DNA of 64,000 nucleotides from Paramecium tetraurelia (Eukaryota). Shown here piece by piece: positions 1-37,057 of this stretch. The translations under genes and the position numbers were made by a program. The DNA lies in NCBI GenBank assembly GCA_000165425.1, contig CT868174.1, positions 310,001 to 374,000 on the forward strand, written 5' to 3'. Position 1 is the stretch's first letter, and every line of letters begins with the position of its first letter. The notes beneath the pieces are model-generated. The model made no database searches, was not told the DNA's origin, and saw only the letters and a program-made list of their open reading frames with translations.

Positions 1-3000
1 CTATCATCTTCAGTAAATGGTCTTCTGATTAATTTTCTTTCCTGTTTACCTGTTTTTGGATTGACTGTTATGATTTCTTCCTCAACATATTGTTCTGGTT
101 CTTCAGAGTTAATTACCTTAACTAATTTACCATCTGATTCTCTTCTCCATTAAGCTAATGACTCATTATTTTCCACTAATTTTCTTGATAATACTATCGT
201 ACCATCCTCTTTACTTTCATTAATATTTTTTCCCAAATTTACCTTTTAATCATTATATGGCCTTCTAATTAATTTCCTTTCCATCATTCCAGTCTCTGGA
301 TTCATTTACAATACTTCTTCCTCAATATATTTCAATGGTTCAGCTTCACTAATTTAATGAATCAGAATTCCTTAATCATTTTATTACCAACTAGTCAATG
401 CAAAATCACTATCAACTATCCTTCTAGCAACTACTTTAGTGCCATCATTCAATTATTCATTAATTTATTCACCCACCTTAAATTTATCATCTTCCAACAT
501 CACAGGTCTTCTTGTTAATCTTCTTTCTTATTTACCTGTTTTTGGATTGTAAACTAGAATCTCTTCTTCAATGAATTTTTAAGCAATATTTGCCAATACT
601 TTTTCCAATGTTCCATCAGGTAGTTTAGACCATCCTTCCTTCTTCAATTAAGTCAAGGATTGCACATTCTCAATCAAACGCCTTGCCAAAATTCTATTTC
701 CTTGAGCATCCTTCTCTTTTATGTCATCTCCTATTTTTAGATTCTAATCCTTAATAGTGAATTGTCTTCGAATCAATTTCCTTTGCATTTATTTGGTCGA
801 CTTATTCACAATTAAGATCTCCTCCTCAATATACTTAACTGGTTCAGCTGCACACAATTGCACTTCAAACATTCCAGCAGATATCTATTTCCACCCTTAT
901 TACAACTAAAACTCAGATGAACTATCATTCTCTACAATACGTCTTGACACTATCTTTCTTCCCCCTTATTAATCAAGAATATTATCTCCCATTTCCATCT
1001 TCTCATCTCCAGGTTAATATGGTCTTCTTGTTAATCTTCTTTCCTATTTACCAGTCTTTGGATTTATTATCAATATTTCCTCCTCTATGAATTTATCTGG
1101 TTCTTGCACATTAATTGTTTTCTCTAATACTCCTTGATGATTAACCCATCCACTCTTCTGCAATTGTTAACTCGATTCAACATTCTCTACTATCTTCCTT
1201 GATAGAATCTTATTTCCATTTTGATCAAATTCCTTCAATTAACCCAATTACAAAGTAGAATCTCTTTTTGCATCATATTATCTTCTCACTAGTTTTCGTT
1301 CATATAATCCACTTTCTTCATTATACACTAGTATTTCTTCTTCAATCATTTAAGATGGCTCTGTCATTGTTATTTCCAGATTCCCATCTTTCATTTTCCA
1401 TCCTTCTTCGTTCAATTAATTTAGTGATTGTTCATTATCCACTATCCTTCTTGCTAACACTCTTTAGCCACCATTTAATTCATTTAATTAATCCCCAATG
1501 GCAACATCCTCATTATAATAAGGCTTTCTTATTATTTTTCTTTCTTATTTCCCAGTCTTTGGGTTTACAATAATTACTTCTTCTTCTATATATTACAAGG
1601 GTTCTTAAGATATCACTTTCTCCTGTTTTTGTACATTCCATCCATCAGCTTATAAGCTAGCCAATGATTAATTATTTTCAATTACTGTCCTTGATAACAC
1701 TCTATTACCCTCATTATCTGTTTCTTATAGATTGTTTCCTATTTTCAGTTTTGGATTAAATGGTTTTCTCACTAACTTTCTTACTAATTACCCATCTTCT
1801 GTTTATACTAGTATCTCCTCTTATATATATTTAACAGGCTCTTTGGAAACCAACTCCATTTAACCTGATTTATTATCAATTACCCATCCTTCCTTTTACA
1901 ATTAATCTTAAGATTACTCATTTTACACTACTCTTCTTGCAACAACCTTTTGATTGCCCCTAGATTCATTCAATGAATCACCTGTATTTAATTCTGAATC
2001 TCCTGCTTACATCGGTCTACGAATAATCTTCCTTTCCATTTGATTTGTTTTAGGATTTAAAATCAATACTTCCTCTTCAATGAATTGAATTGGTTCAGCC
2101 TTAGAAATTACTTATTCTAATTTCCCATCCTATTTTACTGTCCATCTTCGTTATGACTGTTTGTTCTCCACTATTTTTCTTGAAACAATCACATTACCAT
2201 CTTAATCAGTTTCCTTTACATTTCCTAATTTAGCATTAGGATTATAAGGTTTACGAATTAGTTTTCTTTCCATTTATTGAGTTTCAGGATTCAAAACTAA
2301 GATTTCTTCTTCAATATATTTGACAGGTTCATTCTAAGCCAGAATTTTAACCATTGAACCATCAGGTTGTTATTTCCACTCTTTTAATCCTTCAGTAGTC
2401 TCCTCGTTTTCAACTATTCTTCTTGAAATGATTCTCTCTCCTTTCTGTCCAGCTTCATCCATATCATCACCTAATTCAACTTCTTCTCCATAATAAGGTC
2501 TTCTGATGAGTTTTCTCTCCTATTTACCAGTCCTTGGATTTATTGTGATAATTTCCTCTTCAATATATTATTCAGGTTCTTCTGCAATCACTTATTCACC
2601 CAATTATTAACTCTTGAGATTATCAACAACCTTTCTCGATAATACTTTAACATTAGGATCTTCAATTTCTTTAGAATTTATCGGTCTAGTAATAAACTTT
2701 CTTTCCATAACACCTTTTTCTGAATTATAAATAAGTACTTCCTCAACTACAACTTAAGTTGGTTCTTCCTTCACCAAAACTAACTCCATTTAGTCTCCCT
2801 TTTTCTACCATTTTTATAATTCATCACTTGATTATTAATTATCAATTAATCTTCGAGCTACAATTTTAGTATTTCCTTTTCCTTCATTCAATTCTTCTCC
2901 AATCTACAAATCTTACCCATTATATGGTTTTCTTATTAATTTTCTTTCTTATTTTCCATTTTTGTTCATCACTATAACCTCTTCTTCAATGTATTATAAA

Positions 3001-6000
3001 GGTTCTTGGGAGATAATTTTTTCCATCTTCCCATTTTTATCTATTACCCATTCCTATTTCTTTTCTTCAGTCAAAGCATTTTCAACAATCTTTCTTGACA
3101 CAACTCTATTTCCCTATGAATTAATTTCTGTTAGATTATTTCCTTATTTTAATTAAGAATCTTTTTAAGTGAAAGGTCTTCTTATGATTTTTCTCTCCAT
3201 CATACCAGTTTCCTCATTGCAAACCAAGATTTCTTCTTCAATGTATTTAATTGGTTCACTTTAAGATATAACCTTTTCTAAGCATCCATTTTATTATTAA
3301 TTCCACTCTTTTTTTTAACTAGTAGTCATTTCATTGTTTACTATCTTTCTAGATAGAACTTTCATTTATCCATCAGATTCATTTAATTCATCTCCTAACT
3401 TCAATTATTATCCATTGCATGGTTTTCTAATCAATTTTCTTTCAGCCTTTCCATTTTTAAAAACAAGAACTTCTTCTTCATAATATTATTCTGGTTCAGC
3501 AGATAATAATATTTCTTTTTATCCATTTTTACTAGAATTCCATTCTTACATAGAATTTGATGATTTATTGTTATCAATCACTTTTGATGATAATATCTTA
3601 TTGCCATTTTCATCAAACTATCTTTGACCCTCTGTAAATGGTCTTCTTATTAACTTTCTATCCATCATTCCTGTTTCTTCATTATATACTAGGATCTCTT
3701 CTTCTATGAATTTGGTTGGTTCATTCTTTGAAATTTACTTCTCAAATACTCCATTTTTTAATTCAAACTCTTTTCCCTCCTCTCCTTTGACTATTTTTCT
3801 TGAAAGTACTCTTTATCCATTTCCAATATCTTAATTCAAATCATCAGATTCTTCTACCTATTATTCATATAATATTGGTTTTCTAACAATTTTTCTTTCC
3901 TATTTGCCATTCTTAACTATTATAACTTCTTCTTCAATAAATTAATCAGGCTTCTTTGTTGAGATTATTTTCACCAAATTACCATCCTAGCCCTTCTGCC
4001 ATTCGTCTTATTTTTTTATTGATTCAAAATTATCAACTATCCTCCTAGATAAGACTACACCATCATTCGTCTCTTCATTTAATTCACTTCCTAATTTTGC
4101 ATTCTTTTAATATGGCTTTCTAATTATTTTTGTTTCAACCATTCCTGTTTTTGGATTAAAGAAGACCACTTCTTCTTCGATAAATTTGGTTGGTTCTGCA
4201 TTTCCAAGTTTCAACTCATATTAATTATTCTTCTTTTCCCAATTTACTTAAGCATCATTATCAACTATTCTCCTTGCAACTACTCTCTAACCTCCTCCTA
4301 TTGATTCATTCAATTCATCACTAACTTCAATATCTTATCCATAGTAAGGTTTTCTGATTAACTTTCTCTCCTATTTACCAGTTTTAGGATTCACTTAGAT
4401 GATTTCTTCTTCAATATATTATTCAGGTTCTTCTCCCAAAACTACTTCGATGGCTCCAGGATTACTTTACTTCCATCCTTATTTGCTAAGAACAATAGAG
4501 GATTTTCTATTATCAACAACCTTCCTTGAAATTACTTTATCATATTAAGGTTAAGAATTCTAATCTCTTCTAATAATCTTCCTTTCCATCATTCCTGTTT
4601 CTGGATTACGAACCAAGACTTCCTCTTCGATTTACTAAGCTGGTTCGTTAGAGTTGATAGTCATCACTAATTCATCTCCTTATTTTTTCCATTATTTTAA
4701 TTAATCAAGTGATTAATCATTTTTTACAATTCTCCTTGCCACTACATGTTAATCCTTAGATACTTCTTCATCTAATTCATCCCCCAATTCTAAATCTTCT
4801 CCATAATATGGTTTCCTGACTATTTTTCTTTCTTGCTATCCAGTCTTAGGATTCAAAACTAAAATCTCTTCTTCAATATATTAAGCTGGCTCTTCTTGTA
4901 TCAAGATTTCGGTTTGTCCTTATTTCCATTATGATTTAGTTGTCGATTAATTATTTTCAACAACTTTCCTTGAGAGTACTAGATTTCCTTAAGAATCTTA
5001 AATATTAAGATTATTTCCAACTTTAACTGAAGGATTATAGGGTTTTTTGATTATCTTTCTTTCCATCATACCAGTCTCCGGATTCAATACTAAAACTTCT
5101 TCTTCAATAAATTTAATTGGTTCAACTCCTATCTTTTTAACTTTGACACCATCAACTTCAACCCACCCCTACATAGCTTCTTAAGCTTAATTATTATCGA
5201 CAATCTTTCTGGATACTATTTTATAACCTTCCTCAGAAGAAATATTCAAAGAATCTCCTAAATCACCTGGATCTTCTCCCTCCTTCAATGGTCTTCTAAT
5301 TAGTTTTCTTTCTTGCTTTCCTGTCTTCTAATTTAAAATTAAGACTTCTTCTTCTACATATTTAACTGGTTCAACAGCAACTACTTTTTTCAACACCCCC
5401 TTAACCTTTGACCATCCATTTTATGAAGACTCCACATTATCAACAATCCTCCTTGAAACTATTTTGTTACCATCTTTATCAGTTTCACTAACTTATCCAA
5501 CTTCACATGGCTGATATTACCTTCTTACAAGCACTCTCTCTAATTACTTAGTTTCTGGGTTAAGGACAAGTATTTCCTCTTCAATGAATTTAGTAGGTTC
5601 ATCAGATGCTAATTATTTTTCCATCACGTCTCCATTTTTCTGCCATAATTTAAGTTCTTCAGTAGTTTGGTTGTTTTAGATGATCCTTCTAGCTACAATC
5701 TTTTTTCCATTTCCTAATGATTCATTTAATGATTCTCCAATGTCTGGATCTTCGTCATTTCTCAAAGGTCGTCTTACTAATTTTCTTTCTTATTTTCCAG
5801 TTTTTTAATTTATAATTATTATTTCTTCTTCTACAAACTATTCAGGTTCATCATCGCACAAGATCTATTCGTATTGCCCATTCTTCAAAACCCATTATTA
5901 CCCTTAATCTTAAGCTTCTAAATTATCAACAATTTTTCTTGATAATACAGTTCCATTCTGTATATCTTATTTCTTATTATTGGGATCATATGGTCTCTTT

Positions 6001-9000
6001 ACTAATTTCCTCTCCATTAATCCGGTTTCATCATTATATTGCAACAGTTCCTCTATAATCATTTTAGTTGGTTCATTCTTAGCAATTACTCTTACAAGTT
6101 GACCATCCTATTTTACCCAACCTGCTTATTTTAGTTATTCATTGGTTTCTGTATTCTAAACTCTTTTGCTTGATATTATTATACCTTCCTTTAGAGGAGG
6201 ATCATTTACATTTCTTCTAATTAATTTCCTCTCTTATTTCCCAGTTTTTTTATTTTAAATGATGACTTCTTCTTCAATGTACTCTTCAACCTCATTATCA
6301 TTTAAGACTTTCTCAAGATTTTATCCTTTTTATTCCCACCCCTATTTTGACCTATTATCAACAACTTTTCTACTTAATACAGTCATACCATCTCTTTATT
6401 CATTTAAGTTATCACCTAATTTTTGATCTTTCTAGAATGGTCTTCTTATTAATTTCCTTTCTAATAATCCAGTATGATTATTTTTAATCAGAACTTCTTC
6501 TTCTAGATATTTTACAGGCTCATTGCTATTTAGGATCTATTCAAATTGACCATTATTAAATTACCAATCATCCGAGCAATGTTCATTTGATACTATTCTT
6601 CTTGAGATTACCTTCATGTTAGGACCTATCGATTCATTCAAATCATCTCCAATAGCTTCGTTTTCATTAGTGTATGGTTTTCTTATTAATTTCCTTTCTT
6701 GTTTTCCGGTTTTTGGATTAATTATCAAAACTTCTTATTCTATGTAATGTTCTGGTTCATTTTAATTAATAACTTAAATCAACTATCCTTTGTTATCAAA
6801 TTTCCAATTTTTCATTTCAGCTTATGAAAAATTATTGTCAACTATCTTTCTATTAACCACAACAGTTCCATCTTAAAGTTATTCATTAACATTTCCAGTT
6901 TATACTTTTTTATTTGGATCGTAAGGCTTTCTAACTTTTTATCTGACAATCTAACCATTTTTATCCTTGATTAATATTTCTTCTTCAATGTATTATGTGG
7001 GTTCTTCATTGAGAATAATCTCTTAGATTTCTTACCCTTTTTGTTACTACCAATTTCTTTATCCATAAATTGACTGATCATTTTATACAATTCTTCTAGC
7101 AACAACTCTTTATCCATCATTAATTTCATTAATTGATTCTCCAAGATCAACATCCTCTTGATAGTAAGGTTTTCTAATAAGTTTCCTTTCTTACTTGCCT
7201 GTTTTTGGATTTACGACAAGAACTTCTTCTTCAATATATGCTTCAGGTTCTTAGGATGAAATTATTTTAATTTAAGTTCCATTATTTTAAGAATTCCATC
7301 CATCTTACTAGTTAGATTTGAATGATTTAGTATTATCAACGATCGACCTAGATAATATTTTATTTCCATTAGAATCGGTTTCATTTAATTCCGTACCAGT
7401 TTTTAATCTACCATCCTTGTTTGGATTATATTATCTACGAATTAATTTTCTTTCCATCAGACCAGTCTCTTAATCATATTCTAAAACCTCCTCTTCAACA
7501 TATTGTTAAGGTTCAGACTTCGATATTTATAATTCTAACTAGCCTTTATTGTTTCTAACCCAATTTTCATTTTGCAATTGTGAAGAAGATTAATCATTAG
7601 ACACAATCCTTCTGGATACTATTTTCATTCCATTAAGATCTTCATTTAGATTTTCTCCAATATTGACTTATTGATTATTGTACGGTCTTCTAATTAGTTT
7701 TCTCTCTTAGATTCCATTTTTTAAAATAAGCACTTCTTCTTCAATATATTTTTCAGGTTCTTAAATGCTAATAATCTTCTCGTATTTTCCATTTTATTCA
7801 ATCCATCCTTCTTCCTTCTATTTATTAAGAGATTAAACATTTTATATTACTTATCTGGATAATATTTTATTCCCCTTCTTATCTACCTCAGCTAAATTCT
7901 CTCCAAATTTTAATTTCTCATCTTATTTAGTCAATTGTCTTTTAATCATTTTCCTCTCATAATTACCAGTTTCTTTATTAAAACATAGGACTTCTTCAAT
8001 GAGATATTAAGTAGGTTCAATCTACTTAATTTCTAATTCTCCATTTTCATTTAATTTCCATCCTTGTTATTCTAATTATTATTTTGATTGATCATTTCCA
8101 ACAACTCTTCTTGCAACTATCCTTTCTCCATTTTCATTAGTGTCATTGATATCATCCCCATAATTTCTTTGTAAATCATCTTAAAGAAAAGGTCTTCTAA
8201 CTAGTTTTCTCTCCTATTTTCCATTTTTAATCACAATTATTTCTTCTTCAATATATTCTTCAGGTTCCTCAGCTATAGTTTATCGATATGATCCCATAGA
8301 TCCTCTTGTCCAATCTGAGCCAAGTAACTTTAAATTGGGTACAAGTGTACGCTTAACAATAATATTACCATCCTTATCAACTTCTTTCAAATGACCAAAT
8401 TAAATCTTATCTTTATTAACAGATGGTCTCTTTATTAGTTATCTAATCATCGTTCCTGTTTATTGATTAAATGTGAGTACTTCTTCTTCAATAAATTCGA
8501 TTGGCTCGCTTTAAATTAAAACTTTCTCTAAATTTCTTGTAATCTCATTTTTCTTCCAATTTTCAAGATTACCATCATTCTTAACAATTTTTCTACTAAC
8601 AACAACTTAATCGTCAGATATTCTTTCATTTAAATCTTCTCCTAATTAGCATTTTTCCCCATCTTATAAAATAGGTCTTCGAATTAATTTTCTTTATTAT
8701 TTACCAGCTGATAAATTTTGTATTAATATCTCTTCCTCATAGAAATTTAATATTTTATCAATTGATATTATTTTTTCTAATTATCCACTTCTATTTTTAA
8801 TCCATCCTTGTTCTCTAAGATAAATTGTAGATTCAATATTATCACCTACTTCCCTTGAAATAATCTAACTTCCATCAAACTATAGTTCATCTAAACGATC
8901 TCCTAGTATCAAATTTTGTTCATTGACTTCTAAATCATATCTAATTGATTTTTTTGTCTATTCATAATTGTCAAAATCTATTTCAGCAATCATTTCTTAA

Positions 9001-10000
9001 ACATATTTACAAGACTCTCCTTATTTAATGATTTTTTCCCAGTATTTTTTATCTGAATAATATTTCCAATCTTTTTCAACTTATTTCTCTCCCCTAATAA
9101 CTCTTCTAGCAATTATTCTTATTCCTTAAATTTAAATTTCATATAAATTTTCTCCAAATTCCTACTAGACTTTATTTAGAGACTATTCATCAAAATAGAT
9201 CTTTCTTATTAATTTTCTATCTTGTTTCTTTTAAGATACTATTAATATTTCTTCTTCAACATAATAAACTTCATCTTCATTTTAAATATATTTCTAAGCA
9301 GTTCCTAAATTGAAATTGCATTCCCAACCATCCTACGCCAATTATTTAGATGATTATATATTTTCTACAATTCTACTTGATACTAATTTTTGTCCTTCCT
9401 CTAATTTTCTATTTTTGTCATATTTCCTTCTAATTATTTTTCTTTCTATTTAACCTGTGTATGGATTTACCTCTAATATTTCTTCCTCAACATATTTATT
9501 TGGTTCTCTATTACCAAGTATTCTTTCTAATTTAGATTCTTTTGTAACCCATCCTTCCTACTCGAGTTATTCAGTTGATTATTCATTTACAACAATTCTA
9601 CGACCAATAATTCTTTATCCCTAAGAATTGATCTCGTTTAATCCTTCTCCTAATTTAACATTTTAATCATTATAAGGTATTCTCACTATTTTTCTAGTCA
9701 ATTAACCAGTTTTAGGATTTTCAATTAGAATTTCTTCTTCAATATATTTTTAAGGTTCTTATTCACTTATGACTTTTTTGAGTTCTCCATTTTCTTATCG
9801 ATTCCATCCTACTTCATCTGTAACATTGACCAACTTTCGAGATACTAATATTTTACCATCACCCATATCTTATTTGAGGTTATTACCATATTCATAATCT
9901 TAATCAATAGGTCTTCTTATTAAGACCCTTTTAACTTGGTCAGTTTCCTCATCATATTCTAAATATTCTTCTTCTATCATATCTAATGGTTCTGAGGCTC
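1..10000 (-). repeat. Coding tandem repeat array, unit ~190-270 nt, consensus EPxxYIEEEILVxNPKTGxxERKLIRRPY...LGDxLNE...GxKIxSRKIVDN...GW...GxLEKVI
   Basis: The EEE motif (plus-strand ttcttcttcaat-like) recurs about 42 times from ~76 to ~9966. Copies are diverged at DNA level but conserved at protein level. Confidence 0.92.
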
Positions 10001-11747
10001 TCAATTCTTCGATTAAATCCTATTCAGATTGAAAGAGGGAACTAGCATTAGTATTTTTATTATCATGTTAAGATACTCTACTATTAAAAGAATTATTTAA
10101 TTTATTGGTTTTTTCTTGACTATTATTTCTTTATTGTGCATTTCCTAACTCAACAATCATGGATTAAACTTAATCTAAATGAACAGAACTGCTTCTTCTT
10201 GAATGAGTACGATCTCTCATATCGACTGGAACTTATTGCAGATTGCCAAGTTTATTAATAGACTTTTGAATGTCTTAAATAAGTAATCTTATTAAATTAG
10301 CCTTTTTCACTGAAGAACCTTAATTGTTCCTCTATTCTTATATAAAGGATTTGCCAACGGGACTTGGAGAATGTTAAGTAAGGAATGTTTGGACACACCT
10401 TGCAGGAGTAGTAGGAACTCCTTTTTTTGGAGTTTGAAAGTGATGCATCTTGTCCTGTTATTGAGGAGAATAATAGAATCTCTACATTGGAGATACAATC
10501 GAGGTTCTAGATTTACTCATGACTCTAGATGAGAATAATTGTTATGAACTTTTCATAGGAGACATTTATTTTATTATTGACAATTTGGTTTCTGTTGATC
10601 TCAAATGAGCTTAGACATCTACTTCGATATGTTATTATCTTAACACAGATATTCCTTCATTAAATCTTCGTTTATCAACAGTGAATGCAGGTAAATTGAA
10701 AGCATACTTAGTAGCAAAAATTGGTTGGATTGAACTTAAATACTTCAATTCAAATTCTGGTAGTTGGAATCTAATCTGTTCATTAAGTTGTTATAATTCA
10801 TTATTTTCATTGGTATACAGATTCGCCTTATCGATTTTGATCAATCGACCCTCCTCAGTAAAACAATAAATGAAGTAGTTGGTCTAAGATAAGTGGTGAA
10901 TTCTGATATTTATTGCCAATCTCCTTATTATATATCTTCCATTATTGTTAATCAATATAAACATTCGATTTTTATCTATTTATATAGTGAATAATTACTT
11001 GATAGTAAGATTGAATATCTGTCATTTGGTATAATCTCATTCACTATTAAATAGTTTGAGTCTATCTGCTCTGCTCTTGTAATTGCCCACATATTTTAAC
11101 AAGTGAAGTATTCATTTGATAATTTAAATATTTCACTCAACACTTACACTTAAGCCTGTTGATCAGTAAAAATAACATAATCTTTGGCAGCACAGATCTT
11201 TATGAACCTCCCATCTATTCTCGTTGGAATATCGCTTCTACCCAAAGGAGAATTACCCCATATCCATGCTTATCCTTTGTAATCCAAACCGCATCCAATG
11301 TTACTAGATAACGATATGCTCTTGTAATCGTTACCGATCTTTATTGGTGTTTATGAAATATAACATTTCTCATTACCCAACAAACCTAAAGATATTATCA
11401 ATCTTACCTAATTATAATTTATCCTCTCCAAATCCAAATAACTATCCTGAGTAGGTCAACAACAAAGTAACTGATTCATTTGTTGCTATTTGTTTCACTT
11501 TACAATTCCAAGTTGGAATTCTGTAAAATGATTTCCCAAGTTCTAAATAGTAAACGCATCCATTCTCTAAACAGACTAACCAACAAAAATACCTGATAAA
11601 ATTTGATACTAATTTTTGAGGAATCCCTTACACACTTGTCTTACATTTCCCATCTATTTTAATGCATCAACACCTTAAAAAGTTTTCTTAACTCATATTT
11701 ATATTAGATACCTCCTCCTCATCATAGAAATAAATTATTTCATCCAT
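1..11747 (-). CDS. Giant protein (>3,900 aa, 3' end outside window): N-terminal RCC1/BLIP-II-like repeats, S/P/Q-rich linker, then >=42 tandem ~80-aa repeats
   Basis: ATG at 11747 (MDEIIYFYDEEE) with tiny introns near 11710, 11630 and 11408. RCC1-like motifs KQIATNESVTLLLTYSGQLFGFG and IGCGLDYKGQAWIWG. The frame was traced open (ciliate code) into the repeat array. The array was checked motif by motif, not codon by codon. Confidence 0.85.
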
Positions 11748-11915
11748 TTTTATAAATTTTATTTAATAATTATTATTACAACCTCAATAATTAAGATTTA
11801 TCAATGAAGACTTTGCAAATCCCAAATATTTGGCTCCTAAATTACATCATACTTATGTTATTCTACTCATTCTCTTATCCATAAGATTTTATTAACCATT
11901 ACTTTTTACAAGCTT

Positions 11916-21930: not shown

Positions 21931-23801
21931 TCAAATGGTTACTTAGATACCATACTTTTTAATTTCTTCTATCTTCTTTTTTGACTTAGCTTAAGTGATG
22001 CTGACATTGCCATTCAAATACAATTATTTGCATTCGAAATTCTTTTTAGATTTGGCTGCATATAAAATATAATCTAATGCTTTTTCAGTTAATGTGTTGG
22101 ATTGTAAATGCAATGCTGTAACACTTAAATATAATTAACCTCAATACCTAGATGTTTCAATAACAGAGAGTAACTTAGCAAACAGTTCATCAGTTATTTT
22201 ACACTTGCTCATTTTTAAGACTTTGACAATTTTTTTATTTATTAGAGCTTCATCGATAGCTTAAATCAATAAGTCATTCATTTCTAAAATAGTTTGATTT
22301 TTACCTAGAGTGGAGAAATCAATCATTTCAAATTTTTCGAACATTGCAAGAGTATTAATAATTTTATCATTTAATTTAGGATCCTTACTAAATTTTTAGA
22401 CTTTAACCAATTTGGATTATGACTATTTATTTCTATTGGTGTTTGGCGCAGAAACTTCTGAAGGTTCAGTTTATAACATTGTTACACTTCTGTCTTTTCT
22501 TTAGAATTATCCTGGGGTTTAAGTTTGGCTGAAATAATTAGTTTTACTGACATTATATTGAGGAGAAGCAGGTTATGTTGGTTATTAGGAAATATAAGTT
22601 GATTATGTCAATTTTTCATCTTTTATTTCTGGAAATATGATGTCGGAATCTGTTAATTTATCATCTTTATCTAATAATAGTTAATCGAGTTGTTTATTTT
22701 CTTGAGGGAATTGATTTCTAATGTTTTCAATTGGAACATAGAATTATTAGTGATCAGCAATTAACTTGACTTGAGAATCGATTTAAGAAAATTAGAATTG
22801 CATTTTGTTAATTAATTAAGAACCTTATTCTTTGCTGTTACCCAATTCTTTGCTGTTACCTAATTCTTTTACATCCTTTTTTAACTTTTGATTTTGACAT
22901 TTCTCATCAAAAAAATCTTTTAATTGATTACCTGTATTTGAAAGCCATTTCTCTGCTTGATTTTTGAGTTAAATAAATTCTTACTCAATTTTTTTTTTAT
23001 TATCATCATATTAGATATTGTAATTATTTACAATTCTGGATTTCAATTCCTCTTTTATTAAATTTAATTCATTAAATAATTCATTAAACTTCATATCTAT
23101 AGATTATAATTTGGCTTCCTTTGATTAGAGAAGTTTAGTTTCGAATTCCTTTTCATATTCCTTTTATTCAATTTTTGTGCTCATCCCTTTTACAACTTCA
23201 TACATTGTAGTAATATCATTAAATTTTTATTCCATCTCCTTAACATATTAGTCTATAGGCGTATAATTGTGAAACTTATGATTTCCAAATAAAGCACAAT
23301 TAACACAAATGTATTCTCCATCTTCTTAACATACTAATTCTAATGGTTTTGAATGAATAGAACATTATTCACCTTAAATTTCTTTTTATGGTAATTATTC
23401 ACATGAATGTGATTAAGACATGTTCTTGTTGAGTTGAATGTGTTATTGCATATCACTTGAAAATTCGCTAACATCTTCAGTTGATAACCGAGGAATTTAA
23501 TCTTCTGGAGTTACATACGTATGGCATCTATGAACATTATTTCTCTTCTTTTTCAATAACACAATAATGCTCTGATTAATAGGAAAGAATTTGAACTCTC
23601 TTTCAACTTGACATTCGATGCTTAATTTATTTGTGATTGAATTTACTTGTCCTCATTGCAAACTAACTTCAATTGCGATTACAAATATTGGGTCACACAT
23701 AATTAGCATATTGAATGGCCACAGGATGGAAGAACATGAGGACTTTTATCCTGCAAATTAAACTCTTGTTAACATTAACAACATTAAAATTCTTTATCCA
23801 T
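21931..23801 (-). CDS. RING finger + B-box + coiled-coil + C-terminal LRR-like protein (TRIM-like architecture, putative E3 ligase)
   Basis: CCQC..PHVLPSCGHSICQLC..VC (RING); CSIHSKPLELVCQEDGEYICVNCALFGNHKFH (B-box); Q/K/E-rich helix; VKVLKMSKCKITD, ALHLQSNTLTE (LRR-like). Confidence 0.82.
22826..22870 (-). repeat. 18-nt tandem duplication within CDS (KELGNS x ~2.5)
   Basis: The plus-strand core attctttgctgttacc occurs twice at 18-nt spacing, followed by a partial third copy. Confidence 0.7.
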
Positions 23802-26444: not shown

Positions 26445-29400
26445 TCATTCATGAAATTATTCATGATCTTTATTTTAAGCTCTATCTACTTTAGCTGAAT
26501 TGAGTGATAATATCTTTTCCTCTTATTTTGGAGCTGGTGGTAGTACTTTAGGATCGTATGGCCATTTTTCTATCATCTCTTAAGGATTCGCCAAGTAGCT
26601 GCCTTATCCAAACAAGAGTTTTAACCCATAGAATTTACCCTAAAATATATTGAAATTATATACATAAAACAGAGGATGAGACTAATCTTTAATGACATTT
26701 AAATAGAAGCCATTTGGAATGGCATGTCTAACATTCAGAATTTATTCAGTTGGTCCCTTAATTCCCAATATATAAGCTCTAGCATTTCCAGGAGCATAAC
26801 CAAAATAAACAAATGTCCACTAATATGGTATGAGTTTAAAAGTATGGCTAACTGGTTCAAAAGTAGGATCTTTGAGTGTGTATGTACTAGCAACAATTTC
26901 ATCAGTTTTAGTAAAAAGTGCTAGAGTTCTATCACCAATATATCTTTCATCAGATCCTTCATTGTTAGTAGACAACCTAACTAGGCCTCTGTATTCATCA
27001 GTTAATTCTGGAGTTAGAACAGAATTTTGCATCCAAAATCCATATGAATATTCTACCAGACCTGGCTTGTCATTGAATGCAAATGAGAATTTATCTTTTT
27101 TGACATTGATGTCATCTTCAAGTGTAGTATCAATAATTTGGACAGGCCATTTAAAATCTTCAGCATCGAGAGGTTGAACTGGTAATTTACGATGCAATTT
27201 GAGTACCATATCAACTACTTTCTGGCTTTCACTAATGAAAGATCCCTGACCAAGGAAAATTCTTGGATCAAATAACCATCCATGAAATCCTCTAAATCCG
27301 AACTCCTTGGCTCCCAAAACAAACTTTGCAAATCCAGTTAAAGCTCTATGTTAGACTTGTAATTCAATATGTTAAGCCTTTTATTATTCTCTAAACAAGA
27401 CCATTCCATAGAATTATCCAGTCTTATAAGCTGCATAAACGTAGGTCCATGCTCCTTCTAATTCTGTGTATGGTAATTTGCCATCAACAGCATTTGATGG
27501 TTTGAGTACATCATAAGTACTAAATTCATAGTTCCCAAGAGATAAAAAGGCTGTCAATACTCTATCTCCTAATTCACTTTTATCCTAATCCTCTTTATTA
27601 GATGAGAACCTGAAAATATTATGTCGATCTTATCTTTCAGTAAGAGTAGTTGGAAATGATATCAACCATCTTGTCCATACTCCAATAGAGTATTCATCTA
27701 CTGATTCAACTTCAGTCGTGAAAACTTAAGTTATTGCCTTTTCTGTTTCAATTACTCCTTCTTCCTTATTATACCACATGTATTTCTGATTAGTTGGCAA
27801 TGCCCTATAATTTGGCAATGTATCCTCATATCCTCTCTTTTAAATGCTAACAAAAGCACCTAACCCATATTAAGCCACCCAATTTTAAAGATCTCCTTAG
27901 AATCTTTTAGTGAAAGGATCTTTTGCTACATAAATTCCAGTGTAATTTGGTACGAAATGCTAGATTCCTTTAAATATAATTGGTTTATCATCATCGAATA
28001 AATGAAGTAGTGCATGTACCTCTTATATGTCTTCATTGTAACCCATATAAATATATATCCATGCTTTTTTATTATGGCCTAATTCTATCTTTTCATCCAA
28101 ATACTTGGCTTCATTCCAATCTTTCAATCCATGAATTGTGTATGTGGATAATTTAATCGAATCTACACAAACAGAGGCATAAAGAGTTCTATCTCCTTGA
28201 ATTCTTTTGTCATTCAAATGCTCTTTATCATTATTAGTAACTCTAAATAATATTTGGCAATCGTTGGCATTCTATCCCTTTACTTCAGCTATCTTGAACC
28301 ATCCACTGATTGAATATTCGCCAACAGATGACCAAGTATCCCCTCTTAATTCTGTACCACCAACAGTGTCAGTCACTGTTTCGATCTTACCAATTAATTC
28401 TTATTGTCCATGTTTCTACTTATGAATATAGTCTACTGTCAATTGCTATTCAAGTGCAAAAGAATTATCTATTGTCTTCTTTACTTCCTCAACCAACCCA
28501 AAGAATGAACCAACTCCAAAATTGACTGCTATTTTGCTCATTAACCCTTGAAATCCTGGAATCTCTGGTTCACCTCCTATATGTAAAATTACAAAGTCTC
28601 CTAAAGGCTTATGTAGTAAATCTTAATTTTTAATTTGTTAGACCTCTTTACCATCATACACAAAATAAGAGGCTAACTAGCTCACTCTCTAATAACCCAT
28701 GTAGATGTAATTCCATTATCCCTCTAATTTAGAATACGCTATAGTTCTTAGTTCATTGGGTGCATCGTCATTCAAATCATAAGTAGAAAATTAATAATGA
28801 CCTTAAACAATATGAGAAGCTAAGATTCTATCTCCCATAGCCACCTTTCCTACTTCTATTTATTCATTTGAAGTCAATCTGACTAATTACATTTCTTATG
28901 GTAATCTAAACAACCTTTCAGGCCATGCTTATAAGAATCTGCACCAAAACCCTATGCTGTATTCTTACATAGATTCAATTGGTTTATCTGGTTCATCAAT
29001 GAATTTTACTGTTTAAGGCTAACCAAGTACAACCTTCGCTGCATTTTCCCAATTGTTCTTCTTTTCTTATGAGAATAGTTTAGAAGACATTATGAATACT
29101 GGCAATTACAAAAAGTTATCTTTTCGGAATGAACCTTCTCCAAAATTCAATGTTAATTATGCAACTCTACTGTTGAAATTCTCCAATATGCCATCCCTTC
29201 CTACATACAACCAAAACTTTGAAGATACGGCATGAAGAATTGGCTCCAACCCTTTATTTTCGTGAGTATCAGCCTTCAAATAATACTGAACTTTTCTCTC
29301 TTTCTTAGAATAAGCAAAATAAGCAAAAGTCCAAATTTCAAGTTGTTACTTTGGAATATTGCATTCGAAAGGAACATTCATAACTGCATCTTGCAAAGTG

Positions 29401-32400
29401 TAAGTACTAAATAAGGCAGTTCCAATATGAGATAACATTAATACTTTATCACCAATCTTTGAGGCATCATTTTCAGCTTTGTTTGAGGAGAGTCTATAAA
29501 TGACCTAGTTGGGTTTTATTGGTGTTTTGAACCATCTGAACCATATTTAAACTGAATATTCTCTAGCTTCTTATTCAATAATCAGTGGATTGTCAATTTT
29601 CAGTTTTTGAGCATCTTATTTACCTACAAATACTTCGTAATTTTTAGGAACTGATAGAATATCTGGTTTTGGATCTTTATTTTTAATTCTAGCCATGATG
29701 CCTGCAGTGTTTTCAATAAAAGCTCCAGGTCCTAAATTGAATCTCACAGTTGTGATTTATCCATTAAAGTTGGGGTAATATTTACCTGCATGTCCTATTG
29801 TTAATTGTAAATAATTTTAGAGTAAGTTGTGTAATACATCCATTTATATTCCAGGGGTTACTTCTCCAAAGGAAGTGAAGGCTACTGCATGTCCAAGTGT
29901 CTAAGAAATTCTTTTGTAACTAAAATAAACATAAGTCCATTCGCTTTCAGATTCTAATCCATAAGGTATGTTTCCATTTACATTATTTGAAGCTGGTTAG
30001 ACATTGTAGGTTGAGAAATGATAAACATTCTTACCCATCAACACCAATAATACTCTATCTCCAGGCTAATCAAAATCTTTATAATCCTTTTAACTTGTCA
30101 ATCTGGCCATACCCATCCATTATGGCTATTAGTATAAAACTCCCTTATTTGCAAAATGCTAAAATCTGGACCAAAATCCATAACCATATTCACTAACTCC
30201 TTAAAGGTGTAATTTATCATTTTATTCGAATTAAACATGCAAAGGAACTTCTTTTCCATTTGCTGAACATTCAAGCACTTATTCTTCACGATGAGCTTCT
30301 TATCCTGCCTACTACAATTTAATATGGTCAGTTCCACTAATAAAGCCGAAATGTACTTTAATATTCTCGTCGCTTTCAAATCCACCTTCTCTAAAAGATC
30401 CTTCTCCAATATTAATCACCCAAGTTTTCATTTATCCTTAAAACTTCTCTTTTTCATTTCCAATTATTATGCTGAATACAGCAAGATAAAAATGATTGAT
30501 GTCCTCCAACAGAAACTTATCATCAGTAAAGGTATATTTAATGTAACCGAATGCTTTCTTTAATGGAGTTGAATAACCAAAATAAATATAAGTCCATTAA
30601 TCCCAATATTCTCCAAATTATTATTCCTTATTTATTATTTAAGAACAATCCTCACCCTTACAATGATATGTAGAATAAACATATGATAAATCAGATCTAC
30701 GAATCTTAAGTGTTTCCTCGTTCTTCCCATCTAAGTCAGCTAATCTCTTCTAAGCCATTGTGATAATGTGAGAAACCTTTCCCAACTTTTATAAACCACT
30801 CCATTTAACCCACCCAGAGACTGCATACTCAAGAGATCCTTAAAACTTATCAAATTAAAATGTATTAGTTGGCTCACTCACTGGTGTTCCAATTAATTAT
30901 TAAGTTTATCTTGAGACTGGATGGATTTAAGCTTTTTCTGGTAATGTATTTTAAGTATATAATCTCAGGTCATCAGCACTTGACAAAAATGCTCCAGGCC
31001 CTATTGAACATTATATTTTAGTCATTTAACCATTAAAGAATGGAGCCTAAGACTTACCAACAACAAATTCAACATATTCAACTATATAATCATGGAAAAT
31101 ATCAAAAGAAACTTCCTTAATCTCTCCGTCAACACCAAATTGAACATATCCTCTAGCTGTGCCCTTATCTCCAAATCTTTTGTATCCAAAATAGATATAA
31201 TTCCACCAACCCTCTAATTTTGTAAACTGTACTTCATCCTTAGCACTATATGTATAGAATTCATATGCTTCTTTGCTTAAAGTCACTGCCAAAGTTTGAT
31301 CTTTAATTGTTTATGGTCTTGTATTTGCTCTTTTTAATTTTCCATCAACTTATTCGATTAAATATGGTTGTGTACCAAATCTAGCGATATTGTGAACTGA
31401 TCCTCTTTATACTAGATATTTTGGCATTGTACTCAACCATCTTGTCCACATTCCAAAAGAATATTCACTTTAACCATTTATTCTTAATTTTGAGTCGTCA
31501 TGAATGAGTATCTTGTCTACTAATGCATTTTCTGCATCATAATAACAATCTCTTACAACATTAGGTTCAGTTACATCATCTTTATATTATATTGGTTTCA
31601 TTAATTAATAAACATTCATTGCACCATCTCCATAGTAAAATTATTAGCCAAAATTAAGTGCTTATCTGTATGCTCCTGGCCCTAAGTACACTCCTACATA
31701 TCCAATTTTACCATTAAATGGTGATATTTAATCATCTCCACCCAATGTGAAAAACAATTTTGTTATCAATTTATGTTGGATTGGATCAAAAGTAATCTCA
31801 TCAGATTTCCCTGGTCTAATTAAAGCTCCATAAACTTTTATTTTGTCATTATCATAAGCCATAAAACCATAATGCCATAAGTAGTTAGGGGATTAAACAG
31901 CTTTGGATAAGTAGGTTGATCCTTTTGCTTTATTGCCTTCGATAGTGTAAGTATTAAAGTAGACAGAGCTCTTGGATCCTCCTCCATAAACATAATGCAT
32001 TTCGAGCGATCTATCCCCTAATATTCCTTTTCCTTAGGATTTCTTTTCGTTAGATCTTAAATTAAAGATTTAGAAAGTATTTTCACTATCAACCTTCAAA
32101 TCATCTATCCATCTAAACCATGCTGCAACACTATACTCCTCAATTATCAATTAAGACTCCTAAGGATCTAGAATCACAGAATCACTTGCAGTGTTTGCAT
32201 TAAATAATTTTGGAATTGTAATTACTTCTAAATCTATTAAATTTGTAACTTATTAGGGCACGTTTGAAATAGTTTTAATGATCTCTCTTACTTTTGCTTC
32301 AGTATCTATAAATGCTGGAGCATCAATGTCATAAAAGATGTTTGCAAATTGTCCATTTAATCCTTCATAAGTCAAGTGTTTTCCACCAATCATTAATTTA

Positions 32401-35134
32401 AAGTACTAAGGTGGGACATGTCTGCATTAAATTTCACTCCTTAGAATCTTATTATTATCACCATATCCGACAACAAACCCTACTGCTGCTTTCTTAGCTG
32501 TACTGTAAGAGAATGTGATAAAATACCACATGCTATCTAAATCTTCATTTAAAGCCACAATCTAATCTTTCACTTTTTTCTTTTCTTAATGATCGTAGGT
32601 TGAGAAAATAAAAGAGTTTTCAATCATAAAAATAGCTAAAGTTCTGTCCCCATAATAGGTTAAATCTTTATAATCTTGATTTGAAGTTAGTCGAGATAAG
32701 AAGTAATAGGTTTCTGGTTTTCTTTAATGCACTTTAGGCGCATTTGAGGTGTATCTCATCCAAAATCCATATCCATATTCATCAGAATCCTGTAGAAGTT
32801 CTCTGTCTGCAAATTCATATTATTCTACTACTTCTCCATCAAACGAGGATTTAGCATATTTTGTTGAAACTGGAACATTGACTTTTTCTGTTTTTGGCCT
32901 AGTGTTAACTTTATGTTTAGGAGGCTCATATTAAGTTGGTTCATTAGGATTGAATTCCTCCTTCAATGTTTAAATTTTTAAAGATTTTTCATTCTCATCC
33001 TTTACTTCTTATTTTTTCTCAACACTTATACCATCTATTTTTACTTTTTCTTCTTTTATTTAATTAACAGAATTTCCAATATTTTCTTTTTTCTGATCAA
33101 CTTACTATTCTTTTTTCCCATTATTTTGATCCTGCTCAGGCTATTAATCTACTTTTAATTTAGATTTGTCTTCTGCACTTTAAATTTCACTTTATTAATT
33201 TTATTTATTTTCAACGTTAGTAGGTTGGCCAACATTATCATTAGATTTAACTTAATCAGCAGAAGATTTTTCTTAATTATTCGAATTATCTGTAACTTCT
33301 TTTTTTGGTGCTTCCTCCTTCTATTACTAATCCTTTTTATTTGTTGTTTCCTATCCACTAATCTATTCTGTTGGCAATTATTTTTCATCTTTATTATCAT
33401 CCATAACGCTATCTAATAAATCATCAAATTATGAATCTTGTATGATCAGAGAATTTTTTTATTCTGGATCAATCATATTTACTCTATGATAAGCATTAAT
33501 TTTAGGATCATATTCATAATAAATTACTTAATCCCCTTCTACTTCATAATAGATGTATTCTTATTCATCATCTAATTAAACATCCTAACTTATTTCTCCA
33601 GTCTAATCATCTTAATTAACAAAGTCATTTTCCTATTAGACATCATCAACATATTGAGTTTCAACTTAATTATCTCCATCTTTTTCGTAAAGATAATCAT
33701 CCTAATTATTTCTTGACTCTTCATTATAAAAAGATTCATTTCTTGCATCTTCTACTGAAACTTTAGGGGCATCCTCATCATTATTTTCTTCAATATCAAG
33801 ATTGATTTATTAGTCTCCAATTGAGTTTAAAAAGTATGCTTTTGTTTTTGGAACCTATGAACTTGTTTAAGAAATAACATGCATATTTCCTTCAGAATCT
33901 ATAGTGTATTCAGTCACTTCCTCAACAGAAAATTCTTCCCAAACTTCTTCTCCATCTTCAGTTTTCACAACCTTTTTCTTTTATTTATTGCTACTTTATC
34001 CTTAAGAACTTTTAGACTAAGATTTTTTATTGCCTGATGATGATGATGAAGATTGCTTAGTAGTTTAGCTTTAACTACTACTACTTTAACTTCCTTTTTA
34101 AGTGCTACTGCTGGTTTATCCTCCAGTAGCAACTTACTAACTTTTGGAACTGCTGCTTGAACCTTATCCTTATTCTTTTTATTCGGCTTCAGAATGTTTT
34201 TAAGTTAGTCTATCAGCTACAGATTGACTAACCTTCTAATTATTTTATTTATTCTAATCTGCTTACTTTTATGTACTTCCTGAAGCAGTTCCACTAGATG
34301 AGCTTGATGAGCTAGATGAACTTGATGAATTAGATGAGCTTGATGAGCTGGAAGAGCTAGATGAACTTGCGGATTTTGATGATTTAGAAGAAGAAGATCC
34401 AGAGGAACCACTTATCTTTTTAATTTTTTTAACTCTTCTTTTCACAGTTTTCTTGACTTTTCTTACTTTTCCATTAGCATCAGGTTCTTCTACTTCAATT
34501 TATTCATAAATATCTTCCTCTCCATCATCTCCTTCTTGTGAAGTATTATCTTTGGAAGCAGATTCATTTGATTGAGTAGATTAACTTGAGGATGCTGATC
34601 CTTATGCCGATGCCTATGAAGATGATGATGATGATGAGGATGAGGATGATGATTTTGAACCACTAGATGAGCTTGAAATTTTTGATGATTTAGATGAAGA
34701 AGATCCTGAAGATCCACTAATCTTTTTAGTTTTTTTAACTCTTCTTTTCACAGTTTTCTTGACTTTTCTTACTTTTCCATTAGCATCAGGTTCTTCTACT
34801 TCAATTTATTCATAAACATCTTCCTCTCCATCATCTCCTTCTTGTGAAGTTTTTACTTTGGAAGCAGACGCATTTGATTGAGTAGATTAACTTTACGTTG
34901 ATGAACTACCTTCTACAGCCTTATTAGATTGACTGCTACTAGTTGTTGATTAACTTGATTATACTGATCCTTATGCCGATCCTTGTGCTGATCCTTATGC
35001 TTATCCTTGTGCTGATGCTTATGCCGATCCTTGTGCTGATGCATTTGCAGATCCTGATCCCTATCCTTATGCCGATCCTTATGCCGATCCTTATGCTGAT
35101 GCTTATGCTGATGCTTATTATGATGAGGAAGATG

Positions 35135-35183
<49 letters not shown>

Positions 35184-36827
35184 GGATGATGATGAGGATG
35201 CATTAGAAGTGCTTGAAATTTGTGATGATTTAGAGGTAGAAGATCCTGAAGATCCACTTATCTTTTTAGTTTTTTTAACTCTTCTTTTCACAGTTTTCTT
35301 GACTTTTCTTACTTTTCCATTACCATCAGGTTCTTCTACTTCAATTTATTCATAAACATCTTCCTCACCTGCATCTTCATTATTTTACTATTGTGTATTT
35401 TGTTATTCTTTTGCCTTTTTAGCATCATCTTACTCCTTAACTCCTTACTAAACCTTATCACTTTAATTTGCTTATACCTATTTATTGTTTTACTATTGCT
35501 AAGTTTATTTATTAATCTCCTATGATCCTACCCTACCATCAGTAGAAGCTCCTACACCATCTGCTTTTACTATCTCTCCTTCAACAACTTCTTCATCGTC
35601 ATCTGGAGGAATTTCCAAAGGAGGATTCTTATTTTTTTAGTTTTCTTATTATTTTTTTTCTTCTTCTTCTACTTTTGGTTTTTAGATATCTTTTTCTTCC
35701 TGAATGGGGTCTGATTAATCATTTACGCTAATATCTGATTCGAACTGAGTTTCCTCACCGCTAATGCATAAATCAGGTTCATCGTAATTATTTTGATGTC
35801 CAGAATCTGGCCCAAATTCCCTTTCTATTATTATTTCTCTTGGTTTTTTTTTTTTGGAATCTGCTGTTAAATCATCATCTTCTTCTCCATTAATTCTATT
35901 ACTATCTGGAGTTGGTTCTATATCAATATCAATATCTATCTCTTCCTCTTCTGATGAAGTATTTTTTGATTTATCATTACCTTGCTCCTCGCTGGCATTT
36001 TAGGGTGTATCATCCTCTTCGCCTTAAGGACAGACATCATCATCATTATAAAGGATAGGTAATGGACCTTATGATTCTTACCTTGTAGCTGAATTTGTTG
36101 GTATTTATTATTAAGGAATTGAACCTTAATTAGAAGGGTATTCATATTAGTATTAATTATTATCATCTCTATTATGATTGTATTAGCATTCCTATTTTTT
36201 CATTTACAAATCTCTTATCTTTTCTCTCAACCTTGTAGGCTATTGATATTAAGAGCATTCATTTAAATTTCTATTTATTTAATATCTCATGTTCTGTAAA
36301 TAATCTTCAATTTTATTTGCCATAGCAACACGTTCATCATAGTTCTAAGTATTTTAGAATTATCTCATATATTCTATGCATTAATCTAGATTTCCTCTTG
36401 CCCATTAATGATTTAATTAAGCAAGTGACATGTCTAATAATGAATTTGATAAGCTTCCTGTAATTTGCAAGAACATTTCTAAATATTTACAATACTTACT
36501 TTATTATTAAACATCATCAATTTGCTTTGCTTTTTCCACTAATCTAGCGATTTGGTCAATAATTGTTATATCCTTCTATAATTAATCCTTATGCTCAACA
36601 ATATCAGCCCACTTAGATAACTCTACGATGGTGTAATCATAGAAATCAAACCTCATTTAGCATGTAAACTTAGTTGTATTAATATCATTGGCTTCCTAAA
36701 AACTCAAGCCTTGAAATATATATAAAGTGTTACTTCTTTCTCGAGTTTTTAAATTTTATGTTTTCATTTCTACTTCAATTGCATTAGCTACTGCAATTAT
36801 AAGAAGTGTTACGAAGACTTTTTTCAT
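26445..36827 (-). CDS. Giant secreted protein (~3,450 aa): signal peptide, helical N-domain, acidic and Ser/Ala/Gly-rich stalk with 3 basic repeats, 10 tandem LamG/concanavalin-A-like domains
   Basis: Signal peptide MKKVFVTLLIIAVANA. Only two tiny introns seen (~36480-36500 and ~26640-26663). Ten ~210-aa units, each with EYxxxxW(F/T/M)R...RL...GDRxL...FSTY...W(T/Y)YIYxGY...G..F.G. Stop TGA at 26445-26447. Confidence 0.85.
26560..32830 (-). repeat. Ten tandem ~600-670 nt LamG-like domain repeats
   Basis: EYxxxxW motifs near 32780, 32138, 31467, 30830, 30192, 29560, 28963, 28320, 27693 and 27053. Confidence 0.82.
34290..35370 (-). repeat. Three near-identical ~100-130 nt modules (EEDVYEQIEVEEPDxNGKVRKVKKTVKRRVKKTKKISGSSGSS) separated by poly-Ser (TCA)n and 12-nt SAQG repeats
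   Basis: ttttttaactcttcttttcacagttttcttgacttttcttacttttccatt... at ~34425, ~34731 and ~35271. (GAT)n run at ~35137-35200. gatcct(t/g)..gc 12-mers at ~34965-35115. Confidence 0.92.
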
Positions 36828-37057
36828 CTATTATCTATCCGTTTTTAAATAAAATATTAAATAAAATATGAATGGGAATGTATAATTAGATTATAACAAA
36901 TACTGATGAACCTTCTCTCTTTTTAAAAACCTCATCGCTTTTGATATGCTAAACAGAATACCTTCTTATTTTTCCTTTGAATGTAAAATACATTATAATA
37001 ATATAATTCTGAATTGACATTTAGATCGCAATTTTCTAAAATGATTGTTTATGATAA

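Follow-up and report, generated by a model that had tools for sequence, protein, structure and literature searches.

Titin and nebulin, giant proteins of muscle, have been proposed to act as rulers or springs. To our knowledge, few rulers have been described outside muscle, and how a single cell measures cortical distances is an open question. One giant repeat protein of Paramecium, PtCenBP1, belongs to the Sfi1-like class, and many RCC1-like domains serve simply as binding platforms. According to the portions of the literature drawn on here, Sfi1-like repeats form a long alpha-helix with a [F/L]xxW[K/R]-type motif every ~23-33 (or 69) residues (PMC9946354), and the domain termini in linear bacterial rods lie ~180 degrees apart (PMC8201768). 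Here we describe a gene on the minus strand of a 64,000-nucleotide stretch of Paramecium tetraurelia DNA (GenBank assembly GCA_000165425.1, contig CT868174.1, positions 310,001 to 374,000; hereafter the window, whose numbering is used throughout). The protein that it encodes is laid out as an RCC1-like head of ~300 residues, a linker of ~250 residues, 48 units of ~82 residues and a tail of 405 residues. With belief and doubt about evenly balanced, we propose that it serves the ciliate cytoskeleton as an intracellular spacer or tether of fixed length with two conserved ends.

When translated with genetic code 6, the minus strand contains a single open frame running from 10964 to base 3 (3654 codons), which is unclosed at the window edge and in which 260 glutamine residues are encoded by TAA or TAG. 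The start ATG was located at 11747-11745, the first of these being the position that an earlier, sequence-only reading of this DNA had given as the end of the gene; upstream of the long frame, short frames bearing G-rich, RCC1-like motifs lead up to it. A script was used that sought GT..AG introns whose removal reproduces a database protein. With four introns removed in this way, the head is identical to residues 1-300 of an annotated, unnamed protein, P0035 (4851 residues, 564 kDa), and the translation of the long exon in the window (P0001) agrees letter-for-letter with residues 250-3883 of P0035 from its own residue 21 onward. The window covers residues 1-3883, or 80% of the gene, and the 968 further codons beyond the window start encode 6-7 more units and the tail, thereby supplying the C-terminus that the sequence-only reading had proposed to look for in the adjacent sequence. 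Exon 5 consists of one frame that begins in the head (residues 226-300), continues through the linker and the array and runs off the window start. Because this one frame joins the last part of the head to the linker and the array, the exon is a stronger argument for a single protein than the RNA data described below, and the order of the parts, kept in every relative, argues for a single protein as well.

Three stranded oligo-dT RNA runs carrying the same species label (X21-X23) gave nearly all of their depth with the first mate on the plus strand, which is the orientation expected of minus-strand RNA; one X23 bin showed a depth of 0.28 on the opposite strand. Depth was 5-7 at 1-1260, 0.3-0.9 at 10081-11340 and at most 0.08 at 11341-11760, and beyond 11761 it was at most 0.13 in the orientation of minus-strand RNA. 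This pattern fits a single long mRNA with a 3' bias, the reads being too sparse for proof of continuity. Position 817 read T in place of A in 4 of 11, 1 of 8 and 1 of 5 reads from X21, X22 and X23, respectively, which is probably an allele or strain difference. From a run labelled as another organism (X13), one assembled contig joined 6704 to 7224, omitting 519 nucleotides (about two units) and inserting 27 other letters between the two points. Either the assembler misjoined the repeats here, or that organism truly differs by two units.

A hidden Markov model (HMM) built from the window's own units matched the window frame 42 times at E-values from 1.2e-12 to 5.6e-35, with 41 units complete and one cut by the edge; the matches are much stronger than chance would give. 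Across residues 552-4446 of the full protein there are 48 units at E<=0.001, the four or five nearest the tail being degenerate, so the earlier count of at least 42 repeats continuing past the window edge was borne out. Successive unit envelopes defined by the HMM abut, with no linkers between units. The consensus starts with E-P and proceeds through an acidic strand and an N-P-x-T-G turn to a basic strand closing in R-R-P-Y; next come G-x-x-L-N-E, an S-R-x-I-V-x-N strand, the one W of the unit and a closing G-x-L-E-K-x-I strand. All of the motifs picked out in the sequence-only reading (the acidic strand, the turn, the basic strand, S-R-x-I-V-x-N and the W) are present in it. Seven positions are conserved in at least 90% of units (E3, E10, E11, R24, R55, N60 and W70), and a near-invariant E-P is found at each unit junction.

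From about unit 7 onward, units of type A, with a K-T-G-K-Q-E-R-K turn, alternate with units of type B, with an E-T-G-M-M-E-R-K turn. Mean unit identity was 42.4% at even lags versus 37.2% at odd lags, a difference that none of 2000 shuffles of the unit order reached; adjacent units are 37% alike versus 43-44% for next-but-one units. The same alternation was detected in all nine long family members (0 of 500 shuffles for each), and the same two types can be recognised in the paralogues and in P. bursaria. Because the alternation is strict, the true period is a super-repeat of ~164 residues; the repeat length of about 80 residues reported earlier describes the single unit well but is half of the real period. 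Judging from its distribution, the A/B super-repeat is older than the split between P. bursaria and the aurelia complex. The array itself is also old, since the best-conserved 90-nucleotide core of the unit is only 60-81% identical in DNA between copies and Tandem Repeats Finder detected no array over the unit repeats. Its net charge is acidic (688 D+E versus 613 K+R).

Word-index searches returned matches from Paramecium only (7, 3 and 8). Orthologues of 4851-4860 residues were found in P. primaurelia, P. pentaurelia, P. sonneborni and one further record, and a second subfamily with 38-39 units was found in P. tetraurelia, P. sonneborni and P. pentaurelia. Other relatives are one P. octaurelia protein with 70 units and one P. 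bursaria protein with 51. The named records carry only the labels 'unnamed protein product', 'hypothetical protein' or 'uncharacterized protein'. All five full-length orthologues have 48 units and a tail of 405-406 residues, and their alignment has no gap column in the 3895 residues of the array (552-4446), compared with 12 in the linker and 1 in the tail. When the protein was compared with its P. sonneborni orthologue, each of the 48 units paired best with the unit at the same index (mean identity of 87% versus 50% for the second best), whereas collinearity with the paralogues was confined to the last four or five units. By these alignments each unit is conserved individually and the number of units is constant within a subfamily, which fits the fixed-distance tether suggested in the sequence-only reading. 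The different lengths of the paralogues (38-39, 48, 51 and 70 units) raise the further idea that these proteins are true rulers, each setting one cortical, basal-body- or organelle-associated distance, with a two-row A/B ribbon of unseen fold and with the head and tail as measuring ends. We consider this idea improbable as it stands. A bolder version of it would match the A/B pair to one period of a polymer, for example the tubulin dimer lattice.

Relatives beyond these giants were sought with an exhaustive profile search, which gave 22 proteins at E<=0.001, mostly short fragments; because the known giant Paramecium relatives were not among the matches listed, the result says little about absence elsewhere. 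Among the fragments, the units of two clusters (P0044/P0045 and P0013/P0046) are only 31-38% identical to Paramecium units, and the frames that hold them, up to 210 residues long, are open under the standard code. The ~17 glutamines of the 210-residue frame are necessarily all CAA or CAG. This suggests that the repeat may also occur in at least one lineage without heavy use of TAA/TAG for glutamine. Neither of the two divergent fragments with which metagenomes were scanned gave a match. Several giant genes of the family appear from the records to have been split into pieces by public annotation. For example, three P. pentaurelia proteins (P0004, P0034 and P0032, with 2715, 643 and 1430 residues) are consecutive records on one contig, two P. 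tetraurelia proteins (P0009 and P0033) share another contig, and P0008 and P0047 begin within the head. A literature search, which lacked this gene's own identifier and did not extend to supplementary proteomics tables, found no paper describing the family.

The unit is a beta domain that has not been described before and has no counterpart in Pfam or PDB. In PDB, neither a one-unit nor a two-unit sequence profile found a match at E<=10, and NCBIfam yielded no family. Searches of Pfam with whole proteins and with 20 two-unit segments returned scattered noise only (DpaA_N, ArsC, DUF1214, Vault_2 and others), and the ESM Atlas held no usable match for the units, the tail scoring at most 0.78, which is noise level. 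The sequence-only reading had not recognised the unit as Sfi1, alveolin, articulin, epiplasmin, MORN or Ig, and had named a confident match to a characterised family among the things that would overturn it; no such match to Sfi1, Ig or another described family was found in Pfam, NCBIfam or the PDB profiles.

Several candidate identities were considered individually and rejected. For DpaA_N (PF16924), the whole protein scored 33.2 bits against a cut-off of 29.2, but no single stretch passed and three of the 20 two-unit segments matched (best E 0.005), which we read as weak repeat matches summing. Vault_2 of the major vault protein was matched once among four giant relatives, at 18.5 bits and below its cut-off of 23.6, and in none of the 20 segments. 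A tandem array of Ig, I-set or fn3 domains was sought without a match at E<=0.1 in the whole protein or at E<=10 in the 20 segments. Centrin binding of the Sfi1 type was rejected because just 6 residues make up the helix that precedes the W and W occurs once per 82 residues. The domains of SasG/Aap-type rods (G5, E, Rib and SHIRT) likewise had no Pfam match in the whole protein or, at E<=10, in the 20 segments. Fold searches listed no catalogued rod domain either, an absence that by itself is not decisive.

The check on two consecutive units that had been suggested earlier gave a confident, beta-rich AlphaFold2 (AF2) model, with a mean predicted local distance difference test (pLDDT) of 94.8 and a predicted template modelling score (pTM) of 0.82. 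In the model a unit consists of four long strands, a 6-residue helix that precedes the W and, at its end, a hairpin; b6, the last of its strands, runs nearly straight into b1 of the next unit. Mean-field couplings were calculated from 431 two-unit windows of 13 family proteins (effective number 129). Of the 60 strongest, 51 fall within a unit, where they form antiparallel ladders between b1-b2, b3-b4, b1-b4, b3-b6 and b5-b6, and column pairs such as 9-28 and 11-24 link the acidic strand to the basic one. The unit is predicted to be a compact, six-stranded antiparallel sheet of order b2-b1-b4-b3-b6-b5, with a loop and a short helix running across it. Of the charge-complementary hairpins proposed in the sequence-only reading, the beta-rich character and the coupling of acidic with basic strands have survived, but the predicted unit is a six-stranded domain with a helix and not a bare pair of hairpins. 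When the two-unit model was compared with PDB using Foldseek, the best match had an E-value of 0.14 and a TM (template modelling) score of ~0.13; against the viral models of BFVD the best E-value was 0.075, and there was no match at E<=0.001. Within this comparison with PDB and viral models, the unit is probably a new small beta fold.

According to the coupling topology, the N- and C-termini of the unit lie at the same end of the sheet. Successive units should, as a consequence, point to opposite sides, and the array may form a zig-zag ribbon in which the A units face one way and the B units the other. The likeness to a G5-E rod suggested earlier gains an unexpected parallel in the alternation of two related unit types, but is not supported by the placement of the termini. 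The array is probably 70-200 nm long, roughly, with the value set by how the units pack. The model also bears on the doubtful alternative that the array is an elastic element, in which the tandem beta domains, like the Ig domains of titin, would open under load and fold again and thereby buffer deformation of the cortex or of organelle attachments. Forty-eight small all-beta domains without linkers would be suited to such a role, and the lower likeness of adjacent domains (37% versus 43-44%) is a pattern that is said, in the part of the source cited, to prevent misfolding (PMC8201768). However, the pTM of 0.82 suggests a fixed inter-domain geometry, the array is without a PEVK-like extensible segment, and the sequence holds nothing that would separate a spring from a strut.

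The couplings and the charge of the array bear in turn on a lattice-bound ruler or multivalent scaffold. Here the protein would lie along a polymer rather than bridge free space, in the manner of nebulin measuring actin, with one A/B pair for each period of a microtubule protofilament or other cortical filament. Such a protein would account for a two-unit super-repeat kept across the whole family, for a unit number that is exact among orthologues, for paralogue lengths that differ (38-39, 48, 51 and 70 units) and for an acidic array flanked by a basic linker and a basic tail. We nevertheless think it unlikely: the most conserved charges of the unit (E-E-E in b1, R/K in b2) couple within the unit and look structural rather than like a ligand surface, and the net acidic array would be unfavourable toward the acidic tails of tubulin.

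At the front of the protein, the head matches Pfam WD40_RLD weakly over residues 65-145 (E 9e-7; 29 bits, cut-off 150) and RCC1_2 at 19 bits (cut-off 22); the head of the paralogue P0009 exceeds the latter cut-off with 23.2 bits. A profile of ten family members was searched against PDB and gave 22 sequences at E<=1, of which 21 are RCC1-type propellers. These include RCC1 (the best match, E 7.8e-6), the RCC1-like domain (RLD) of HERC2, UVR8, RPGR and RCC2, all aligned to head positions 21-180 only. Approximately 120-160 of the ~300 head residues could be aligned to RLD relatives, and about six blade-like segments may be readable by eye within the 300 residues. The RCC1-like N-terminus of the sequence-only reading therefore holds, in a weaker form: the likeness appears real but weak, and the head is best described as a divergent RCC1-like domain and putative propeller. 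Neither the PDB profile of the family nor Pfam gave an RCC1-like match outside head positions 21-180, and none fell on the array. Completion of the propeller by the tail was considered and rejected, the RCC1-like matches being confined to those positions.

The linker (residues 301-551) is S/Q-rich and basic, with an isoelectric point (pI) of 9.5, and parts of it are conserved in the paralogues. Of the S/P/Q composition described earlier, serine and glutamine were recovered, but proline is not among the eight commonest residues. The tail is basic as well (pI 10.0), and several of its motifs, including its last residues, are kept in all seven aligned tails. Identity by blastp with the paralogues and with P. 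bursaria is 37-47% for the head, 27-34% for the linker and 32-36% for the tail. No signal peptide or membrane span was found in the protein, the maximum Kyte-Doolittle mean over 19 residues being 0.85, and the N-terminus is acidic, in agreement with the earlier claim that a signal peptide is lacking. Because there is no hydrophobic span, the protein is read as cytoplasmic.

The RCC1-like protein Nd6p was reportedly placed in ciliate exocytosis by Gogendeau et al. in 2005. A head of this type could make the protein a guanine nucleotide exchange factor (GEF)-type enzyme acting on a small GTPase, with the array merely localising it; grouped with this is a subunit that self-assembles side by side into a fibre. 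The confinement of the head's sequence matches to RCC1-type propellers (21 of 22 in PDB) speaks for the enzyme, as does the action of RCC1-like Nd6p in ciliate exocytosis, as given in the portion of the source cited (PMC13739732). On the other hand, the head matches only ~2-3 blades, at 29 bits where Pfam asks for 150, and localisation alone would hardly explain the strict conservation of 3895 array residues. Many RCC1-like domains are also mere binding platforms. We judge either form quite unlikely.

The conserved ends, the exact length of the array and the domains, which look stiffly joined, are, taken together, best explained by a fixed-length spacer or tether. In such a protein the array would be a stiff, acidic spacer of fixed length that holds the ligand of the head at a set distance from the ligand of the tail, acting as a strut, tether or ruler. 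The A/B alternation could keep neighbouring domains dissimilar and guard against misfolding, dissimilar neighbours being described, in the section of the source cited, as a rule against misfolding in large multidomain proteins (PMC8201768). Alternatively, the alternation may set A units and B units on opposing sides of a zig-zag ribbon. A location in the cortex or cilia, filament formation and a link to exocytosis, all raised in the sequence-only reading, are pure conjecture.

A number of points weigh against the fixed-length spacer. The proposed function is inferred from the architecture alone. No splice joint was seen in the RNA runs, and depth over the head was below 1x. The paralogues have 38-39, 51 and 70 units, so a given length is not universal in the family. 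The alignment used for AF2 consisted of the protein's own 20 unit pairs, that is, of rows from a single protein, and the agreement of couplings between halves (42 of 51) is non-independent, as each unit is present in both halves. Couplings between units gave no interpretable ladders, being confounded by the alternation. Finally, a topology with both termini at the same sheet end would not imply a simple head-to-tail rod.

Table 1. Parts of the giant gene within the window (positions in window numbering).
Feature	Position	Strand	Basis
RCC1-like head (weak likeness), coding sequence, residues 1-300	10752..11747	-	spliced translation equals P0035; Pfam and PDB profile matches
Exons 1-5	11747-11712, 11686-11593, 11566-11408, 11385-10999, from 10975	-	script
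Intron 1, 25 nucleotides, GTA..AAG	11687..11711	-	splice script
Intron 2, 26 nucleotides, GTA..TAG	11567..11592	-	splice script
Intron 3, 22 nucleotides, GTA..TAG	11386..11407	-	splice script
Intron 4, 23 nucleotides, GTA..TAG	10976..10998	-	splice script
Linker, residues 301-551	9999..10751	-	composition, pI, blastp, insertions and deletions among orthologues
Units 1-41, residues 552-3848	108..9998	-	unit HMM, consensus, alternation test
Unit 42, first 35 residues, cut by the edge	3..107	-	unit HMM

Elsewhere in the window, a second giant frame occupies 26445-37187 of the minus strand (3580 codons, code 6). Its start is hydrophobic and resembles a signal; low-complexity stretches, acidic or poly-Ser, with a charged segment in triplicate come next, followed downstream by at least 12 copies of a ~190-residue unit; no Pfam family was found in it at E<=0.001, and it had no meaningful sequence match in PDB. 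Also on the minus strand, 22141-23652 encodes a B-box zinc finger (E 3.8e-10) and 60825-62384 weak leucine-rich repeats. Scans of the whole window for tRNA genes and Rfam families found none.

The family described here belongs to a genetically tractable ciliate, bears no functional name in the records consulted, is built on a domain absent from Pfam and PDB, and has an exact length that is maintained by selection. It thus offers a testable candidate for a ruler, and its unit, as a probable new small beta fold, is a subject for structural work.

Among known systems, titin and nebulin share with the Paramecium protein hundreds of kDa of tandem small domains, the presence of super-repeats and a length conserved between species. 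They differ from it in fold, no Ig, Fn3 or nebulin module being found in it by Pfam, and there is no sarcomere in Paramecium. The RLD proteins, represented in ciliates by Nd6p, provide the sole significant matches of the head (RCC1, HERC2, UVR8, RPGR and RCC2); within cellular organisms, the searches made turned up none that carries a beta-repeat array of this kind.

A closer parallel in architecture is offered by the G5-E proteins SasG and Aap and by the Periscope proteins, in which, according to the parts of the sources cited, a functional head is likewise followed by a long array of small beta domains with no linkers or very short, proline-containing ones (PMC4458895, PMC8201768). Each sequence repeat of SasG comprises two related domain types in alternation, comparable to A and B in Paramecium, and Periscope arrays set a distance (PMC8201768), as we propose for the Paramecium array. 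The same accounts also mark the differences. Periscope proteins are secreted and wall-anchored, whereas the Paramecium protein is eukaryotic and without a signal or anchor; their repeats are nearly identical, with a copy number that differs from strain to strain, whereas the units here are ~40% alike (37-44%) and fixed at 48 in five of five orthologues; and their domain termini lie 180 degrees apart, whereas those of the Paramecium unit would lie at the same end of the sheet.

Finally, the closest ciliate counterparts are GSBP1 and GSBP2 of Spirostomum, which, in the portion of the source cited, are also giant repeat proteins with few or no introns and one conserved W per repeat (PMC9946354). 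For these proteins, as for the Paramecium giant, oligo-dT RNA-seq under-represents the 5' parts (PMC9946354). By the same account the GSBPs are alpha-helical binders of centrin/spasmin with a 23-residue motif and a W every 69 residues, whereas the unit described here measures 82 residues and, its 6-residue helix apart, is predicted to be all-beta.

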